Part shown: positions 51,027 to 64,000 of the stretch, one piece after another | How positions within the stretch are numbered: position 1 is the first letter of the stretch | How the letters are laid out: every line of letters starts with the position of its first letter | NCBI RefSeq assembly: GCF_046105845.1 | Contig: NZ_CP151004.1 | DNA from: Escherichia coli | GTDB taxonomy: Bacteria; Pseudomonadota; Gammaproteobacteria; Enterobacterales; Enterobacteriaceae | DNA: 64,000 nt | Strand: one strand, 5' to 3' | Made by a program: the position numbers and the translations under genes | Notes under the pieces: model-generated | What the model was told of the DNA's origin: nothing | Database searches by the model: none | What the model saw: only the letters and a program-made list of their open reading frames with translations

Positions 51027-51431
51027 CTAAGGACATATAGATGGATCATTTATTTCAAAAGAAAAATCGGACTCCATACTAGATGAGGATTTTTTCAATA
51101 AAGAGGAGATATGATATCCAGATAAAGTTTTAGAATTGTTACCATCAGATATCAAAATACTAAGTTCAGAAACAATATTTACAGGGTTTTTATTAAAAAC
51201 ATCTGACTCTCTACCTGTGTAAATAAAGTATACAATTGGCTTCCGCTCTCCGATATCAAGATGAAAATTATCTCTTACTTTACCATCATAATGTGTTGAA
51301 TTATTGACCGTCGAAATGTTAATAGATACTTTGCATGTATTTACCATGACAATGGAACAAGAATAGAATGGTTGAGATAAACATCCAGCACACAGCGTAC
51401 ATAATAAAAAAAAGAATATTAATCTAGTCAT
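51027..51431 (-). CDS. lipoprotein-like secreted protein; candidate immunity protein for the upstream PAAR toxin
   Basis: 134 aa; N-terminal signal peptide with Cys cluster (MTRLIFFFLLCTLCAGC...); start overlaps the stop of the PAAR-HExxH gene by 8 nt; AT-rich. Confidence 0.4.
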   Translation of the reverse strand: MTRLIFFFLLCTLCAGCLSQPFYSCSIVMVNTCKVSINISTVNNSTHYDGKVRDNFHLDIGERKPIVYFIYTGRESDVFNKNPVNIVSELSILISDGNNSKTLSGYHISSLLKKSSSSMESDFSFEINDPSICP

Positions 51432-52863
51432 GAAATTTCACCCGAGATAACCATATCATTGCACATACATCGTTTTCGACAGCAACCGACCTTGCATATA
51501 GATCACTGGTGTATATATGCCCATTATAATATTTCATTAAATCTATCTCGCCAGTTCCTGGATAAACTGAATGAGGCAGTGCATATTGAGGTGGTACAAG
51601 ATTAGAGGTCCCTTTATGCTCCCATGAATACGTATTCCCACCGTAACTTTTTAATATCATATGACCAGTCTCATGGGCTACATCAAGTTTAAATTCTAAT
51701 CCAGCCTTAAAAACAGGATCCGCGCCTTTCTGATACCCACGGCCATATTCATAATACCCCCTATTGAAATAAATGTTCATACGTCCCATAAAAGCACTAG
51801 ACCTGACGCTTTCTAGATCTTGCTCCTCAATTAAATCAAAAGAATCCATGGCTGGATCAATATTTATTGATACAGAGATATTTACATTATATTTACCGTG
51901 CGGAGTAGTAATATTATTGCCAATTCCGGGATTCCTCATTCCATTTCGTGCCCAATAATACTCTATTCCATCCTTGGCAAGTTGCTTTAATTTTTCAAAC
52001 CCTACAGGTGCAATACGATCATCTTTATGACTCACACCATCATCTTCAAATTCTACTCGCCAACTGACATCAACTATTTTTTGATTCTTGTCTACTTTTA
52101 CATCAATCCAATCTTCCTCATTCGCAGAAGTTTTCAATGGATAATCAACTTTTATCATCATATCACCACATAAAGCAATCAGTCTTACGAGTAGTGATTT
52201 GCTTTTTAGCTTAGTTGTATCCAGTATGTCTTGATTACTGTAGCCATCCCATTGCCAGGCATGCTCTCCCTTATCAAAATATTTACCGGTCTGCTGTTCA
52301 CTATAAATCACTTCATTACCATCAAGCACTTCCAGAGAAAGCGCTTCAGCCTCATCGCCTTTATTTGTGATGGTAAAATCTATTTTTTCTGTATTCTTCG
52401 TACTACCACCGCTAATCATTTCTTTATAATCAGGTATATTCAATGGCGTCAGTATCTTATTACCTGATAATTTAATTCTGTAATCCAGTTTTACATCATC
52501 TGAGGATGAATCAGAACCAGAAGTCAGATCCTTTTTCGCCGACTGCGCATGTTGTTCCGCTTCACTTCCCCCGTCATCCGTCTCATACACATCATCCATC
52601 ATTGACGCAATAAATCGCGCCTTACACGGGCAACTGCTCTGACTGTCCAGCGATCCCGCCATCAGCCTGCCGTGAATATCCGTTTCCGGCACGCCGCCGA
52701 CGATAATAAACATCCCCGAATGTTTACCGCAGGTCACTCTGTCCATATCCCGCGCCTGCGGGATACCCATGATCGTATGGTCGTCCGCCCCTTCAATAAT
52801 TTTGCCGCCGCAGGTGGTCTTATCGCCCCTGACCAGAAAATAGCCTCTTCCCATCGTCATCAC
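51424..52863 (-). CDS. PAAR-domain protein with C-terminal HExxH (putative zinc metallopeptidase-like) toxin domain
   Basis: 479 aa. The N-terminal ~90 aa fit the PAAR pattern (RGDKTTCGGKIIEGADDHTIMGIPQARDMDRVTCGKHSGMFIIVGG); then an acidic/Ser-rich linker; the C-terminal region contains HETGH. Start overlaps the tssA stop. Confidence 0.65.
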   Translation of the reverse strand: MMTMGRGYFLVRGDKTTCGGKIIEGADDHTIMGIPQARDMDRVTCGKHSGMFIIVGGVPETDIHGRLMAGSLDSQSSCPCKARFIASMMDDVYETDDGGSEAEQHAQSAKKDLTSGSDSSSDDVKLDYRIKLSGNKILTPLNIPDYKEMISGGSTKNTEKIDFTITNKGDEAEALSLEVLDGNEVIYSEQQTGKYFDKGEHAWQWDGYSNQDILDTTKLKSKSLLVRLIALCGDMMIKVDYPLKTSANEEDWIDVKVDKNQKIVDVSWRVEFEDDGVSHKDDRIAPVGFEKLKQLAKDGIEYYWARNGMRNPGIGNNITTPHGKYNVNISVSINIDPAMDSFDLIEEQDLESVRSSAFMGRMNIYFNRGYYEYGRGYQKGADPVFKAGLEFKLDVAHETGHMILKSYGGNTYSWEHKGTSNLVPPQYALPHSVYPGTGEIDLMKYYNGHIYTSDLYARSVAVENDVCAMIWLSRVKFHD

Positions 52864-59126: not shown

Positions 59127-59504
59127 TTACTCTGATACATTTATGGTATATATTTTGCCAAACCGTCCTCTGCCACCACCACCTATGGAGAATCCTCCGA
59201 TTTCAATGACTATCGCCCCTTTTACAACAGGGATACCCTGAACAATAAGGCAACTATTTTGGTCTGGCTCAAAAACATCAATAGTCAAACCCGAATTCTC
59301 AGGCCTGAAATCTTTCAATGGAAAAAAAGGTACAGGCCCAACTCCTCCTGAAATCTCGATTTTTGCATAGTAACTCTGACCTAATTTTGCATCAGGCAAG
59401 GAGTCTGGGGAAACAGTAGTTTTTGGGATGATTAGCATATGTAAACATCCAGTTAGTGATATTGATAATGAACATATGAGTAAAAATTGAATTGTCTTTT
59501 TCAT
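59127..59504 (-). CDS. small lipoprotein; candidate immunity protein
   Basis: 125 aa; lipoprotein signal MKKTIQFLLICSLSISLTGC; ATGA start/stop overlap with the upstream gene; Gly-rich C-terminus; AT-rich. Confidence 0.45.
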   Translation of the reverse strand: MKKTIQFLLICSLSISLTGCLHMLIIPKTTVSPDSLPDAKLGQSYYAKIEISGGVGPVPFFPLKDFRPENSGLTIDVFEPDQNSCLIVQGIPVVKGAIVIEIGGFSIGGGGRGRFGKIYTINVSE

Positions 59505-60361
59505 GACTTGTTAGTGTCAATGTCAATATAAACCTGATTGGATCTAATGTTAAATTTATCTTCAAGTTTTTCACCCGACATATCAAGATTTAGCAGTAAT
59601 TTTTTAATTCCATCGTCGTTATTATCACCTAAGCATGAATTATCTGGTTCGAGGTGGCTATTATCTTTATTAAAGAAGCATATGTATTTCTGGCTCAATA
59701 GATTAAACATTTTTTTATAGATGCGCTGCCGAACAAGCCATTGTTCATTGACAAACGGATATTCAAGAGTACCTACCTTGTAACGCCGTAAGCCCGGCGG
59801 AAAAGCATATAAAGATTTATTCAAATAAATACTGACAACATACTTTTCCCCGGATTTAATCTCGAACCAGTTTCCAGAATCAGGATCGTCATCATAGCCA
59901 TTACAAAATGAACCCAGAAAATCCAGTCTTGAGTTATCAGTAATAATAAGAAAGTCTTGTTTACATGATGAGGTATATGCCATGTCTTGTTTATTTTTTT
60001 TAAAAAAAGTCAGAAAAATATCAGGAAGATAGAATGAATGGTGGCTTTTATTTTCAAATTCTATAGTCATTACAACTTCTTTTTTAGATTTTTGCTCTGC
60101 AAATAAACGGATAAACATGTTGATTTCAGACTGTAGCTTTTTATTTTCTTTATCATCCAATAAGTATCCTGGTGAGAGGAAAACATACTTCTCATCATCA
60201 CGTAATGGATAAAAAAAAGGTGAGTCAGTTACTATTCTGCTTTCCCCATAACCATAACCATACTTCTTAAAAACCAGTAAGTCATCGGCAATTGAATTAA
60301 GTGAAAACAGCAATAAGAAACAAAAAATTGCATAATTAATAAATTTACTAAATGTATGCAA
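59501..60361 (-). CDS. secreted protein of unknown function; candidate immunity protein
   Basis: Start placed at the TTG 7 nt after GAAGGAGG, giving the signal peptide MHTFSKFINYAIFCFLLLFSLNSIA; the ORF track's longer version starts at 60397. Very AT-rich. Confidence 0.45.
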   Translation of the reverse strand: MHTFSKFINYAIFCFLLLFSLNSIADDLLVFKKYGYGYGESRIVTDSPFFYPLRDDEKYVFLSPGYLLDDKENKKLQSEINMFIRLFAEQKSKKEVVMTIEFENKSHHSFYLPDIFLTFFKKNKQDMAYTSSCKQDFLIITDNSRLDFLGSFCNGYDDDPDSGNWFEIKSGEKYVVSIYLNKSLYAFPPGLRRYKVGTLEYPFVNEQWLVRQRIYKKMFNLLSQKYICFFNKDNSHLEPDNSCLGDNNDDGIKKLLLNLDMSGEKLEDKFNIRSNQVYIDIDTNKS

Positions 60362-60448
60362 AATAACCTCCTTCAATAAAAAATCAAAAAAAAACACAAG
60401 TTACATTTTACTCTAAATATAACTTGATTGATTAACAATTAAAGAAGA

Positions 60449-61252
60449 TTACTCGGGTGGTGGTGGGGGATTATTATCAACTATAATTTTTAAATCCTTA
60501 CTCATGTCCTCTTCCACAGATTTTTTTATATCTATTAAAATCTCTTCATTCAGAGCTATCTGAAAATATTTCTCAACATTATAAGCACTTCTGAAAACGG
60601 CCTGATTGTGTTGACTAACCATTGTTTTTGCAGCAGCCAAATGAGCATCACCACTCATAAATGCCGGTTTCCCTTGCGCATTCATATCATGTGTGCTCAT
60701 TCCACCACCAATACCACCTTTGCCGGTCCTACAAAAATGAGACATTTCATGACACAGCGTTGAAACCTGAGAATCAACACCACATAATGGTTTGTCCTTA
60801 AACTTTCCAGCTATAAAAATATGATAATCTTTATCAATAAATTCATTAACTCTGGCAGTGAAATTCCCACATACCGTATTATTAATATAATAGCAAGTTA
60901 ACACTCCATCCTTATCATATCTGAACATTTGATTATGAATTGTTTTAATCCTCTTGATACCATCCTGCATTATTAACAATGCAGTCTGTTTAGTTTCATC
61001 ATCATCTCCTATCAATTCATCACCTTTGGTGCCAAATATTTTATAAAACTCGCTTATCTCTTTTTCCTTCCCCCCCTTATTCCAACCCTCAAGAGAATGT
61101 TCGCGAATCTCAAGAACTTTTTCTTGGGCTTTGTGTGCTCGTAATATCATCTCTTTAAATTTATTAGTAATAACAACTTCAGCGACACAAATCTCTACAG
61201 TAGCTGGAGCTGGAGCTGGCTTGCCGTTTGATATTTTATTTCCCATATACAT
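60449..61252 (-). CDS. VgrG-adjacent protein with HExxH motif; candidate T6SS effector (putative metallopeptidase-like)
   Basis: 267 aa starting 6 nt after the vgrG stop (alternative ATG at 61246 has better RBS spacing). No signal peptide; contains CHEMSH followed by a Gly-rich segment; Pro-rich termini (PAPAPA, PPPPPE); AT-rich. Confidence 0.5.
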   Translation of the reverse strand: MYMGNKISNGKPAPAPATVEICVAEVVITNKFKEMILRAHKAQEKVLEIREHSLEGWNKGGKEKEISEFYKIFGTKGDELIGDDDETKQTALLIMQDGIKRIKTIHNQMFRYDKDGVLTCYYINNTVCGNFTARVNEFIDKDYHIFIAGKFKDKPLCGVDSQVSTLCHEMSHFCRTGKGGIGGGMSTHDMNAQGKPAFMSGDAHLAAAKTMVSQHNQAVFRSAYNVEKYFQIALNEEILIDIKKSVEEDMSKDLKIIVDNNPPPPPE

Positions 61253-61258
61253 TCCCTG

Positions 61259-63760
61259 CTAGTCGATCAGAACTTCAGGAAGTATTAATTCAACCTTTAT
61301 TTCCTGATCATTGTCTCTATTAAAGTTTTCTGTGTTTCCGTTATCATCAGTTACTCCCTCCTTTTGCGTCCCTTCAGCAAAGTATGCAATATATTTTGTG
61401 TTCGCATAAGGTATGCCATAATCATCCACAAAGTGAAACTGAAGGTTATATTCCCCGCTCTCAATCAACGGAAATGCCATTAGTTCCGGCGTCAGCTTCG
61501 CCTTCGGCTTACGACCGTAATATCCCGCCTTAACGTTATATTCTCCCGGCGTTCCAGCTTCTATCCCGCAGGCATCCAGCCGGATATAGCTGCCACCGCC
61601 GTTTAGGGTGATTTTCTTCTTCGCGGTGATCTTGATCTCATCTTCCGTACTGGTGATCACTATCGATTTCTGAGCCAACAGTTCCATCAGATCGTTCTGT
61701 GCCTGTACCGAGATCGCCCCCTTGTTGGCAAACAGCTTGATACCCGCTTTGCGCACAAACACGCTCAACGCCTGACCCACACCGATAAACATATTCTTCA
61801 CAACACCGATATCAGCGTGATTTCCTGCGTTCGCGATCAGGTTTTTCGATGCCGCCAGTTGCAGGTGCTCTCCGCTGGCGATCGCCACGCCTTTGGGTGC
61901 GCTTAGCAGGATCGCAGCCTGCGTCAGATCTTTTACACTCTGCTGCAACAGCGCTATCTGTGATGACAGATCTGCCGGATCGGCATTCGCCGTCTGCGCA
62001 TCAGTGGACAGCGACTTCATCTGTGACTGTGCGCCATCCAGTATTGCCATCGCCGGAGCCATTTCGCGCACCTGACCCTGCGCCTTGTCCTGCGCGTCGG
62101 CGCTGATAAAGATGCCTTTCTTTGCCCGCACCGCGCCCCACAGATCGGTACGCAGTTCAAAGCCTTCCCCGCGCTGCTGTTTCCCGGCGTCCACCAGATG
62201 ACCGAGGTTTAGCTGGCTCTTGCCGCCGTACTCGGTACTGACCTTGATATGCTCTTTGCCGCGCTCGTCATCCAGCCGGATTTTGTTGTTTGCCGGGGTG
62301 CGCAGCACGTTACGCTTGTAGTTCTGGATGGTCACATGGTCGGTGTGCGCCGAGTCGTGCTTTACCCCGGCGATATACGGTCGGTCCGGGTTGCCTTCCT
62401 CAAAGGCGATACTGACTTCCGTTCCCGCCAGCAGCGGCAGGTGCAGGCCGTAGGTGTCTCCCGCATACGGGCGCGACTGGCGCACCCACAGGCTTTCATA
62501 ACCCGGTTTCCACGTCTCGCGGTCAAAGTCGAGGTTGACCCGGTAGCGCCCGTCCTTGTCGATATGGGCATAGATATCGTTCTTCACCGTGCTGGTGACC
62601 CGCGCCGGGAGCGTTCCGGCCATGACCGGGCGGGGGATAAACGCCGGGCGGTAGCCGTAGCGTTCTGAGTACGGGATAGCGGTAAACGTCAGTTCATAGC
62701 TGCGGTCACGCGCCGCGCTGGCCGTCACGCCGGTAATCAGTACGCCCTTGCGGAACACCGCTGGCGCGTCGTCGCCCTGAACCCTGATTTCCAGCCCCGG
62801 CATCAGCAATGAACTGGTGCTCTGGCCTTTGAGAATGGCCTGTTCATTCAGGTAGCGTTCGTGGCGGATACGGGCATAAAACGCGCCGCTTTCCGCTGAT
62901 TCCTGGTCGCCTTTTTGCAGGAAGTTGTCGGCGTAGTGATAGGCTTCGCCGTAGGTGGTGTTATCGCCCCCGGTGGCGTCATGCTGCTCTGTCATCATCT
63001 CTGCTGTGGCGGTGCGGTAGTTGTAGTCCCGCGTGGTGACGCTTTTCTCCACCACGCTGTATGCCGTGTTCAGCCCCCATACGGCTTCCGTTTCACCATC
63101 AAACAGCCCTGAAGTATGGCGAAGCGGCAGCGTCAGTCCGCGCTCGTAGCCGCTCTGGTCGTCGTAAAACTCGACAACCTCAATTTTCAGCCGGGCGTCG
63201 GTGGCAAAGCGGAACCAGATACCCACTTCCGACAGCAGGCGTGAAATAAACGTCAGGTCGTCCTCACCGTACTGCATCACCTGTTCACGGGACGGGTATT
63301 CGCTTTTGAGGTTAAACACGAAGTCCTGACCGCGCATCTGATGCCGCTCGCGCAGGATTTTTTCGACGATTTGCGGCACCGTCAGATTCTGGTAGATGGC
63401 GTTCTGGCGGCTGCGGGCCAGCAGTGCCATACGGGGTTCAAGGCGCACTTCGTAACGGGCTTCATCCTGTGACGAGGAGAGATGTTTAAAGCCAGTAATG
63501 ACCCCGTACAGGGTGCGCAGGGGGGCCTGCACCGGCATTCCCTGTACGGGCGGTGCCGTCAGGCTGAATGCGCCGTCCTGCATCAGCACCGACTCCGGCT
63601 CGATGGCTTTATCGGTACTGGTAAACTTAATGTCGTAGCGGAAGGGGGCGCTGAGTTGCTCACTACCCGTAAAGGTCAGCACGTCCACCGGGCTTTTCAG
63701 GCTGCGAATTTTGAGCTTGTGGTGCGCGTGGTTAAAGTTTAGGGCAGGAATATTCATCAT
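61259..63760 (-). CDS. vgrG: T6SS spike protein VgrG with C-terminal extension
   Basis: 833 aa; gp27/gp5-like VgrG body, beta-helical region, then an extra ~100-aa C-terminal segment (...ELMAFPLIESGEYNLQFHFVDDYGIPYANTKYIAYFAEG...). Confidence 0.85.
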   Translation of the reverse strand: MMNIPALNFNHAHHKLKIRSLKSPVDVLTFTGSEQLSAPFRYDIKFTSTDKAIEPESVLMQDGAFSLTAPPVQGMPVQAPLRTLYGVITGFKHLSSSQDEARYEVRLEPRMALLARSRQNAIYQNLTVPQIVEKILRERHQMRGQDFVFNLKSEYPSREQVMQYGEDDLTFISRLLSEVGIWFRFATDARLKIEVVEFYDDQSGYERGLTLPLRHTSGLFDGETEAVWGLNTAYSVVEKSVTTRDYNYRTATAEMMTEQHDATGGDNTTYGEAYHYADNFLQKGDQESAESGAFYARIRHERYLNEQAILKGQSTSSLLMPGLEIRVQGDDAPAVFRKGVLITGVTASAARDRSYELTFTAIPYSERYGYRPAFIPRPVMAGTLPARVTSTVKNDIYAHIDKDGRYRVNLDFDRETWKPGYESLWVRQSRPYAGDTYGLHLPLLAGTEVSIAFEEGNPDRPYIAGVKHDSAHTDHVTIQNYKRNVLRTPANNKIRLDDERGKEHIKVSTEYGGKSQLNLGHLVDAGKQQRGEGFELRTDLWGAVRAKKGIFISADAQDKAQGQVREMAPAMAILDGAQSQMKSLSTDAQTANADPADLSSQIALLQQSVKDLTQAAILLSAPKGVAIASGEHLQLAASKNLIANAGNHADIGVVKNMFIGVGQALSVFVRKAGIKLFANKGAISVQAQNDLMELLAQKSIVITSTEDEIKITAKKKITLNGGGSYIRLDACGIEAGTPGEYNVKAGYYGRKPKAKLTPELMAFPLIESGEYNLQFHFVDDYGIPYANTKYIAYFAEGTQKEGVTDDNGNTENFNRDNDQEIKVELILPEVLID

Positions 63761-63804: not shown

Positions 63805-64000
63805 TCAACAATGAAACTCAATGAACTCTCGCCATTGTGGTGTCGCATTATTTTTCACTAAGAAATCGTTTCTTTCATCAGGTGATAGACTGTGCCAGAA
63901 CGGAGACCAAATACTCTCCCACCAGAACTCAACTTCTCCTTGTAAGCTACCGAAAGTATCGGGTTCCAACTCAGGAAAAACATCCCATGGCACAGGTTCT
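63805..64000 (-). CDS. hypothetical Trp-rich protein, probably 5'-truncated by the window end
   Basis: Minus-strand frame is open to the window edge; C-terminal sequence ...FWWESIWSPFWHSLSPDERNDFLVKNNATPQWREFIEFHC; no recognisable family. Confidence 0.3.
   Translation of the reverse strand, partial: EPVPWDVFPELEPDTFGSLQGEVEFWWESIWSPFWHSLSPDERNDFLVKNNATPQWREFIEFHC

Follow-up and report, generated by a model that had tools for sequence, protein, structure and literature searches.

A C-terminal transthyretin-like domain as the probable docking adaptor for a predicted aspzincin cargo on an Escherichia coli VgrG spike

Both the use of a transthyretin-like (TTR) domain as an adaptor on VgrG, the spike protein of type VI secretion systems (T6SS), and the M35 toxin family have already been described. 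In enteroaggregative E. coli (EAEC), a cryo-electron microscopy structure showed the TTR of VgrG1 bound to the lipase Tle1 (PMC9860674; PDB 6SJL/6SK0), and in the VgrG of adherent-invasive E. coli (AIEC) the TTR (residues 768-824, after an unstructured linker at 750-767) was placed by modelling on the N-terminal loop of Tle3 (PMC9860674). Such an extension is the normal architecture of the DUF2345+TTR 'COG4532' subclass and no add-on (PMC9860674). VgrG2b and VgrG4b of Pseudomonas aeruginosa also carry a TTR at the C-terminus, with evidence that recombination at this domain swaps the 3' ends of vgrG genes (Wood et al. 2019, PMC6899460); in large-scale surveys, VgrG C-termini with a TTR appear as presumed cargo binders (PMC11148199). 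In E. coli PAR, the toxin M35^PAR is neutralised by the product of a downstream gene, and it co-precipitates with 'DUF2345^PAR', a C-terminal fragment of VgrG, whereas no co-precipitation was seen with VgrG^PAR alone, the N-terminal part (Commun Biol 2023, PMC10673891). In this work we analysed a 64,000-nucleotide stretch of E. coli DNA (contig NZ_CP151004.1; referred to as the window), in which a vgrG gene of a T6SS-1 type cluster is followed by a gene for a predicted aspzincin/M35 zinc metallopeptidase (the cargo). The C-terminal extension of this VgrG is, in our judgement, quite probably a TTR adaptor that docks the cargo and determines specificity within an exchanged aspzincin cassette. 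The original prediction, which saw in the extension a docking or specificity domain for a cargo other than a lipase, is supported by the homology of the TTR, its predicted fold, its co-variation with the cargo and the binding data on the M35^PAR homologue.

The window shares with E. coli PAR the cargo and immunity families, the TTR class, the gene order and the T6SS-1 cluster. M35^PAR is 99.2% identical to a 262-aa protein of E. coli 536 and 32% identical to the window cargo, which matched this 536 orthologue with E=5e-29; the 298-aa protein encoded after the window cargo is 28% identical to the PAR immunity protein and matched a 310-aa protein of 536 with E=8e-24. By homology and gene order, the window cargo and the 298-aa protein form a pair of the M35^PAR type, and by analogy they may be a toxin and its neutralising partner. 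The window module differs from that of PAR in that its cargo is longer at the C-terminus by 35 aa, which end in PPPPPE, in that it includes an additional lipoprotein gene and in that its VgrG is intact. In comparison with EAEC VgrG1-Tle1 and AIEC VgrG-Tle3, the cargo is a predicted zinc metallopeptidase and not a Tle lipase, the pairing is a predicted one, and the window TTR is only about 34% identical to that of EAEC. Like VgrG2b, the window combines a spike carrying DUF2345 and TTR with a zinc metallopeptidase (predicted in the window; acting in the periplasm in the case of VgrG2b) and a small, exported immunity protein (a probable one in the window) (PMC6899460); however, the protease of VgrG2b is of the DUF4157 type and is fused after the TTR, whereas the window cargo is a separate protein with a predicted aspzincin fold.

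The spike protein and its C-terminal extension

The product of the vgrG open reading frame (ORF) matched the curated VgrG models TIGR01646 (450.8 bits, cut-off 121.8, E=6.5e-135) and TIGR03361 (244.9 bits, cut-off 186.35) and is a clear VgrG (TssI) with a gp27-like and gp5-like (OB) core. Pfam recognised Phage_GPD at residues 34-349, Phage_base_V at 400-466, T6SS_Vgr at 487-588 and DUF2345 at 606-746. Residues 8-481 were near-identical to c3393 of E. coli CFT073 (PDB 2P5Z), and the alignment with EAEC VgrG1 ran from end to end (13-825 with 19-831 of PDB 6SJL). The window is of E. coli origin, its paoABCD genes being 98.9% identical to those of complete genomes, and the cluster is of the T6SS-1 type by synteny with E. 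coli R12 and PAR, in the order tssK, tssL, an OmpA-family gene, hcp, tssH, vgrG, a variable region, a 404-aa gene, tssM, tssA and a PAAR gene.

About 100 residues had been predicted beyond the usual end of the spike. The extension does exist, but it is shorter, with 87 residues past the end of DUF2345 (residue 746 by Pfam), and no Pfam or NCBIfam model covered residues 747-833 in scans of both. It consists of a 23-aa linker and a 64-aa C-terminal unit (residues 770-833), to which the peptide quoted with the original prediction, YNLQFHFVDDYGIPYANTKYIAYFAEG, belongs (residues 771-797 in the ORF translation). The C-terminal 113 residues alone matched residues 732-831 of EAEC VgrG1 (PDB 6SJL) with E=3.5e-7, and this sequence comparison makes the extension a homologue of that protein's TTR adaptor. 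With a DUF2345 after the gp5 domain and a C-terminal TTR homologous to that of VgrG1, the protein falls among the 'COG4532' VgrGs. When the C-terminal 90 aa were used as the query of a word-indexed search, the matches were short E. coli fragments only and gave no gene context.

In the AlphaFold2 (AF2) prediction the TTR domain formed five strands with a predicted local distance difference test (pLDDT) score of 66-88, and in a fused model, described below, the first 12 of the 13 linker residues 757-769 scored below 50. The absence of Pfam and NCBIfam models from residues 747-833, together with the low confidence of the linker and of the last seven residues, could be taken to indicate a disordered or vestigial tail that has no function. 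However, the TTR is predicted to be folded, is homologous to a solved domain and is conserved, with identities of 32-87%, in at least seven genera of Enterobacterales and in metagenomic contigs. The idea of a functionless tail is contradicted by these results and we regard it as extremely improbable; disorder of the extension, named beforehand as an outcome that would speak against docking, was not found. The term 'evolved VgrG', also used in the original prediction, had to be dropped, as the unit is a 64-aa TTR-like fold that carries no catalytic motif and the toxin is a separate ORF. As judged from its sequence, the extension is an internal adaptor with no toxin domain.

The tail after the last strand (LPEVLID here, QNIDMILGGVHE elsewhere) follows the cargo subfamily only imperfectly, and the closest cargo relatives (P0003-5) have the other tail type. 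At three loci of such relatives (L018, L019 and L021) the tails were of the 'QHIDMIEGGV' type and not of the 'LPEVLID' type of the window. The positions of the features are collected in Table 1.

Table 1. Features of the vgrG-cargo module in the window, with further ORFs of the window and aspzincin toxins delivered by other routes
Feature	Position	Strand	Residues or size	Remarks
vgrG ORF, spike protein of T6SS-1 type cluster	61259..63760	-	833 aa	Coordinates include stop
DUF2345 beta-helical extension	61523..61945	-	VgrG aa 606-746	Constant region of the spike; PF10106, E=2.6e-48
Linker	61454..61522	-	VgrG aa 747-769 (23 aa)	...GEYNVKAGYYGRKPKAKLTPELMAFPLIESG; recombination/GC breakpoint near 61470, at its 3' end
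TTR-like adaptor with tail	61262..61453	-	VgrG aa 770-~826, tail aa ~827-833	Five predicted beta-strands; tail LPEVLID
Cargo effector	60449..61252	-	267 aa	Predicted aspzincin/M35-fold zinc metallopeptidase
Cargo N-terminal strand motif	61169..61189	-	Cargo aa 22-28	CVAEVVI, then TNKF; proposed TTR-binding element
Cargo catalytic motif and zinc ligand	60686..60751	-	Cargo H168-E169-x-x-H172, D189	HExxH at 60737..60751; putative third zinc ligand D189 at 60686..60688
Cargo C-terminal extension	60449..60556	-	Cargo aa 233-267	Helix, short strand, NNPPPPPE
Probable periplasmic immunity protein	59501..60397	-	298 aa	Hydrophobic signal-like N-terminus
Predicted lipoprotein	59127..59504	-	125 aa	LTGC lipobox; last gene of low-GC cassette; GC 0.384
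PAAR protein	51424..52863	-	479 aa	PAAR at aa 13-70; HETGH in C-terminal part
ORF at window end	63805..63993	-	62 aa	Probably part of a second module
Aspzincin fused to VgrG C-terminus	Enterobacter L015, 3-1262			Also P0073 (909 aa)
Aspzincin fused to PAAR	Chimaeribacter L013, 4234-5219			Frameshifted in assembly
Aspzincin beside putative DUF4123-like adaptor	Parasulfuritortus L014, 1446-5486			Betaproteobacterium; adaptor recognised by eye, not scanned

The cargo cassette and its co-variation with the TTR

The content of guanine and cytosine (GC) was 0.582 in the VgrG core and 0.536 in the linker, dropped to 0.359 in both the TTR and the cargo gene, was lowest in the gene of the 298-aa protein (0.314) and, after the lipoprotein gene, went back to 0.56 in the next gene. 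E. coli 536 has two tandem vgrG genes, the first (vgrG#1) with an unrelated 296-aa glycine-zipper protein as cargo, plus a 205-aa protein, and the second (vgrG#2) with the 262-aa aspzincin homologue. The DNA similarity of the window to 536 vgrG#1 (95%) ends at 61470, at the first TTR codons, and that to vgrG#2 runs on, at lower identity, to 61318. At the protein level, each 50-aa block of residues 451-750, which include all of DUF2345, was 98-100% identical to both 536 VgrGs, whereas in the last block the identity was 45% to VgrG#2, with its diverged aspzincin cargo, and 18% to VgrG#1, with its different cargo. The GC drop, the breakpoint in the DNA comparison and the protein identity profile together show that the TTR belongs to the cargo cassette and not to the spike. 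Since DUF2345 is 98-100% identical between VgrGs with differing cargos, it cannot distinguish these cargos.

The ORF of the cargo begins 6 nt after the vgrG stop; its true start is probably the second ATG, at 61246, which gives a protein of 265 aa and a distance of 12 nt. Pfam matched Aspzincin_M35 weakly (E=0.057), a sequence search of the PDB gave 1G12 (E=4e-4) and AsaP1, and the HExxH motif with the segment that follows it could be aligned with GfMEP and AsaP1. H168, E169, H172 and D189 were invariant across all members of the cargo family. The sequence matches are weak; the predicted structure settled the aspzincin assignment, as a Foldseek search with it found aspzincins as its fold matches (E=4.5e-6). 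The cargo thus combines HExxH and a downstream Asp ligand in a predicted aspzincin fold, and its peptidase activity is likewise predicted; that the neighbouring cargo would be an HExxH protein (here at aa 168-172) and no lipase had been anticipated correctly. Membership in the C-terminal (DUF4157) metallopeptidase family of VgrG2b was considered and rejected: the PDB search gave no VgrG2b sequence match, Pfam gave no DUF4157, and the fold matches were aspzincins. In comparison with GfMEP (1G12), deuterolysin (1EB6) and AsaP1 (2X3A), the window cargo lacks a secretion signal and a propeptide and has instead an N-terminal motif, proposed to dock to the TTR, and a long helix; the canonical M35 motif GTxDxxYG is degenerate (GGMSTHDM).

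The family of the cargo is a small one: of the 1.84 billion representative proteins covered by a profile search, 132 matched at E<1e-3 and no more than 34 at E<1e-10, and a word-indexed homologue search found five close relatives only. NCBIfam and PADLOC scans gave nothing useful for the cargo, the 298-aa protein, the lipoprotein, the PAAR protein or the 404-aa protein, and the 298-aa protein had no family in scans of Pfam and NCBIfam. In the literature we found nothing on a T6SS with an aspzincin or on the effectors of E. coli MP1, which carries the exact module.

Of 5426 complete E. coli genomes, only five carry the module of the window (R12, MP1, LI60C3, SCU-111 and FDAARGOS_1373, at about 96% identity), and it is a rare, diverged subtype with a C-terminal extension on the cargo and an additional lipoprotein gene. 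The latter, also present in R12, is possibly an orphan or second immunity gene. The ORF list and the NCBIfam scan showed no adaptor gene of the DUF4123, DUF1795 or DUF2169 type in the cassette.

A scan with the cargo-family profile, with one genome per species, gave 13 loci, among them loci of Buttiauxella, Rahnella, Citrobacter, Phytobacter, Trabulsiella, Superficieibacter and Escherichia sp. At ten of the 13 an intact cargo homologue directly followed a vgrG with the same TTR class in its last ~65-70 residues, the class being defined by the motif [EKQ]Y.[LI].F.F.D..G.PY....YIA.F.DG.Q..G.TD..G.TE.F, and an eleventh (L012) had the same arrangement with a frameshifted cargo gene. At this locus (Superficieibacter electus, 640-1530) the TTR-bearing vgrG end and the immunity homologue were intact and the cargo was broken by frameshifts, which looks like a decaying toxin with its immunity kept. 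The same class and order were present at all four of the closest metagenomic cargo homologues, in 536 vgrG#2 and in both modules of E. coli PAR, where in each of the tandem vgrG modules (L023 15770-24429) a TTR of the aspzincin class comes before an aspzincin cargo, of 246 aa in one and 262 aa in the other. Besides that of the window, 17 modules have this TTR class before an aspzincin homologue, with two VgrG backbones that are unrelated to each other, and a homologue of the 298-aa protein usually came next (after the cargo homologue in 12 loci). The class occurs on DUF2345-type VgrGs (window, 536, Rahnella, Phytobacter) and also, after a Gly/Asp/Glu-rich disordered tether, on VgrGs that are only about 20% identical; in the Buttiauxella VgrG, for example, Pfam found Phage_GPD, Phage_base_V and Gp5_trimer_C but no DUF2345.

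Inside the class the TTR identity was 32-87% (median 48%), and against the TTRs of 536 VgrG#1, EAEC VgrG1 and the second Phytobacter VgrG the medians were 27-30%. In Mantel tests on 14 independent pairs, TTR identity correlated with that of the cargo (r=0.48, p=8e-4) and most strongly with that of its first 45 residues (r=0.54, p=2e-4). For the ten loci with a backbone available, the TTR-cargo correlation was r=0.51 (p=0.001), whereas neither the TTR (r=0.12) nor the cargo (r=0.19) correlated significantly with the backbone. Single pairs illustrate this: the window and 536 VgrG#2 are 100% identical in the backbone, 63% in the TTR and 32% in the cargo; Phytobacter L009 and the metagenomic L016 are 97%, ~33% and 37% identical, respectively; and Buttiauxella L003 and Phytobacter L009 are 18% identical in the backbone, 70% in the TTR and 44% in the cargo. 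The alignment of VgrGs with different effectors, proposed earlier as a check for co-variation, was positive, as the TTR is unrelated where the cargo differs on VgrGs that are 98-100% identical over residues 451-750, and an aspzincin cargo goes with the same TTR class even on unrelated backbones.

These results bear on the published view that the DUF2345 beta-helix itself docks and discriminates the cargo, with the TTR as an accessory or passive cap. In its favour, M35^PAR is bound by 'DUF2345^PAR', which links it to VgrG^PAR, and there is a correlation between the clusters of DUF2345 and the families of the toxins encoded downstream (PMC10673891). However, PAR vgrG#2 is a pseudogene, split by an internal stop into products of 560 and 250 aa, and the latter comprises DUF2345, the linker and a TTR of the class described here; the published pull-down therefore supports docking at the C-terminus but cannot separate DUF2345 from the TTR. 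Moreover, the window DUF2345 shares its near-identity with a 536 VgrG (VgrG#1) whose cargo is unrelated, which leaves no room for discrimination between these cargos, the aspzincin-class TTR and its cargo also occur on VgrGs that lack DUF2345, and TTR identity does not go with backbone identity. On the basis of the identity profile and the DUF2345-less backbones we rejected DUF2345 as the specificity element, and we consider it unlikely that the beta-helix is what docks or discriminates the cargo.

The proposed contact between the TTR and the cargo

To examine the pair as a structure, the TTR (13+64 aa), a 30-residue (GGGGS)6 linker and the cargo were modelled by AF2 as a single chain with a concatenated alignment of 15 pairs; the cargo modelled alone served as the control, and the interface was read from differences in DSSP assignment, predicted template modelling (pTM) scores and aligned lengths. 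In the fused model (pLDDT 78, pTM 0.74) residues 22-28 and 7-10 of the cargo formed beta-strands. In the model of the cargo alone (pLDDT 85.5, pTM 0.83) residues 1-29 had no secondary structure, the first helix starting at residue 30; residues 1-23 had a pLDDT below 50, and residues 22-28 were coil (pLDDT <50-61). TTR-like and CnaB structures could be aligned to the fused model over 75-83 residues at 2.2-2.8 A, in Foldseek alignments that span 122-131 columns, although only ~57 ordered residues derive from VgrG. As the aligned length exceeds the number of VgrG-derived residues, cargo strands must be part of the sandwich in the model, which suggests that what the TTR sandwich lacks is supplied by the cargo's N-terminal strands. 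A similar sharing of strands has been described for VgrG(AIEC)-Tle3. The strand at residues 22-28 lies within a motif of the cargo family, C..E..(V/I)(T/S)(N/D).F (residues 22-32 here), which was not found in the aspzincin toxins that use other routes (P0073, L015, L013 and L014).

Several points weigh against docking through the TTR. The authors of the PAR study credit DUF2345 with the binding of M35^PAR, although their fragment holds both DUF2345 and the TTR (PMC10673891), and in EAEC Tle1 also touches the needle, i.e. the beta-helix and the spike base, so that the TTR may not suffice (PMC9860674); this contact favours a part for the beta-helix as well. In the models, the N-terminal cargo strand reached a pLDDT of only 54-78, the VgrG tail LPEVLID stayed below 50, the paired alignment with its 15 pairs is shallow, and the interface was deduced indirectly. 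The TTR identities inside the class overlap slightly with those to other classes, which go up to 37%. Finally, linkage by itself would be expected to produce Mantel correlations for genes that lie side by side, so that these speak for co-inheritance, not for contact.

The last point can be extended to a separate explanation, in which TTR and toxin are inherited together only because recombination falls at the linker, the TTR serves some purpose unconnected with the cargo (e.g. contact with the target cell surface, with PAAR or with the baseplate) and the cargo is loaded otherwise. Linkage could by itself yield the TTR-cargo correlations, adhesins and carbohydrate-binding modules often have TTR-like and CnaB-like folds, and tight coupling is not universal, since the genes of the closest cargo homologues lie 185-620 nt apart. 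On the other hand, the same TTR boundary is found on two unrelated backbones with different linkers, which argues for selection that keeps the TTR with the cargo; direct binding of the cargo is known from the homologous TTRs of EAEC and AIEC (PMC9860674); the N-terminal cargo motif occurs only in TTR-associated members and is a strand only when the TTR is in the model; and, by the ORF list and the NCBIfam scan, the cassette has no adaptor gene of the types named above. We therefore hold mere co-inheritance to be very unlikely.

The physical binding of this VgrG and this cargo is inferred, and under docking through the TTR the module may work as follows. The TTR domain would be tethered to the end of the DUF2345 beta-helix by the flexible linker of ~23 residues, and each of the three TTRs of a VgrG trimer would capture one copy of the 267-aa metallopeptidase. 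The contact is likely to be a beta-strand complementation, in which the N-terminal strands of the cargo (around residues 22-28) would fill the incomplete TTR sandwich. The T6SS-1 machine would then fire the loaded spike, the protease would act in the target bacterium's periplasm, and the signal-peptide-bearing 298-aa protein would protect sister cells. The geometry of the contact, the periplasmic action and the immunity are proposed by analogy with EAEC VgrG1-Tle1, AIEC VgrG-Tle3 and M35^PAR of E. coli PAR. The choice of cargo would be set by the TTR and not by the gp27/gp5/DUF2345 spike, and the low-GC cassette of TTR, aspzincin toxin, immunity gene and lipoprotein gene would be exchanged horizontally.

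Related modules and the meaning of the comparison

The distance between vgrG and cargo differs among the loci. At loci of the closest cargo relatives (51-58% identical), an AT-rich spacer of 185-620 nt separates the two genes (L018 266-885, L019 468-652, L021 836-1025), and at the other loci the genes overlap or lie 6 nt apart. The C-terminal extension of the window cargo is shared by its subfamily (P0001-P0005) and is absent from the 536/PAR-type cargo; P0014, P0018 and P0022 contain a related stretch that is only partial. The strand of this extension was kept in both AF2 models, which indicates that it packs on the cargo itself.

The aspzincin toxin domain uses at least four delivery routes: as a TTR-docked cargo, as a C-terminal fusion to VgrG, as a fusion to PAAR and beside a putative DUF4123-like adaptor (Table 1). 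A helical segment, '...L.RW...D...F...FG', is common to all of these types, whereas the N-terminal strand motif of the cargo is not shared. Lipoproteins 32-34% identical to the 125-aa lipoprotein are encoded in a T6SS island of Citrobacter werkmanii (L005 1494-1901 and 2000-2404), in a different module beside a 467-aa protein and after another TTR fragment; these may be immunity or orphan immunity genes.

Two more possible toxin modules were noticed in the window. The 62-aa ORF near its end matches the C-terminus of the 205-aa protein that follows 536 vgrG#1 and its glycine-zipper cargo (...PWDVFPELEPDTFGSLQGE.EFWWESIWSPFWHSLSPDERNDFLVKNNATPQWREFIEFHC). On this match, a second upstream vgrG-cargo-immunity module is probable, cut by the end of the window. 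The 479-aa protein, which is 72% identical to a PAAR protein of E. coli PAR, has a C-terminal part of low GC (0.31-0.37) with an HETGH motif and is a second HExxH candidate toxin in the cluster; an ORF of ~136 aa adjoins it downstream. Pfam recognised only the PAAR motif in this protein, and there were no NCBIfam or PADLOC matches.

The comparison leaves the established model unchanged and extends it to a rare module. Spikes of one species that are near-identical (98-100% over residues 451-750) but carry different 64-residue TTRs, each matched to its own cassette, amount to a natural experiment. It refines the published view, in which DUF2345 acts as the adaptor that discriminates the M35 toxin of E. 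coli, and points to the TTR. The short N-terminal motif of the cargo could help to predict or engineer loading. A further step would be to see the 64-aa TTR alone as a portable plug that specifies an aspzincin cargo through the two N-terminal cargo strands and that has moved between two unrelated scaffolds, one being the DUF2345 helix and the other the gp5 trimer helix with an acidic disordered tether; for this proposal as a whole we see the chances as even. If it is true, any spike could be re-targeted simply by exchanging ~64 codons, and the published loading of M35 via DUF2345 would need to be revised.

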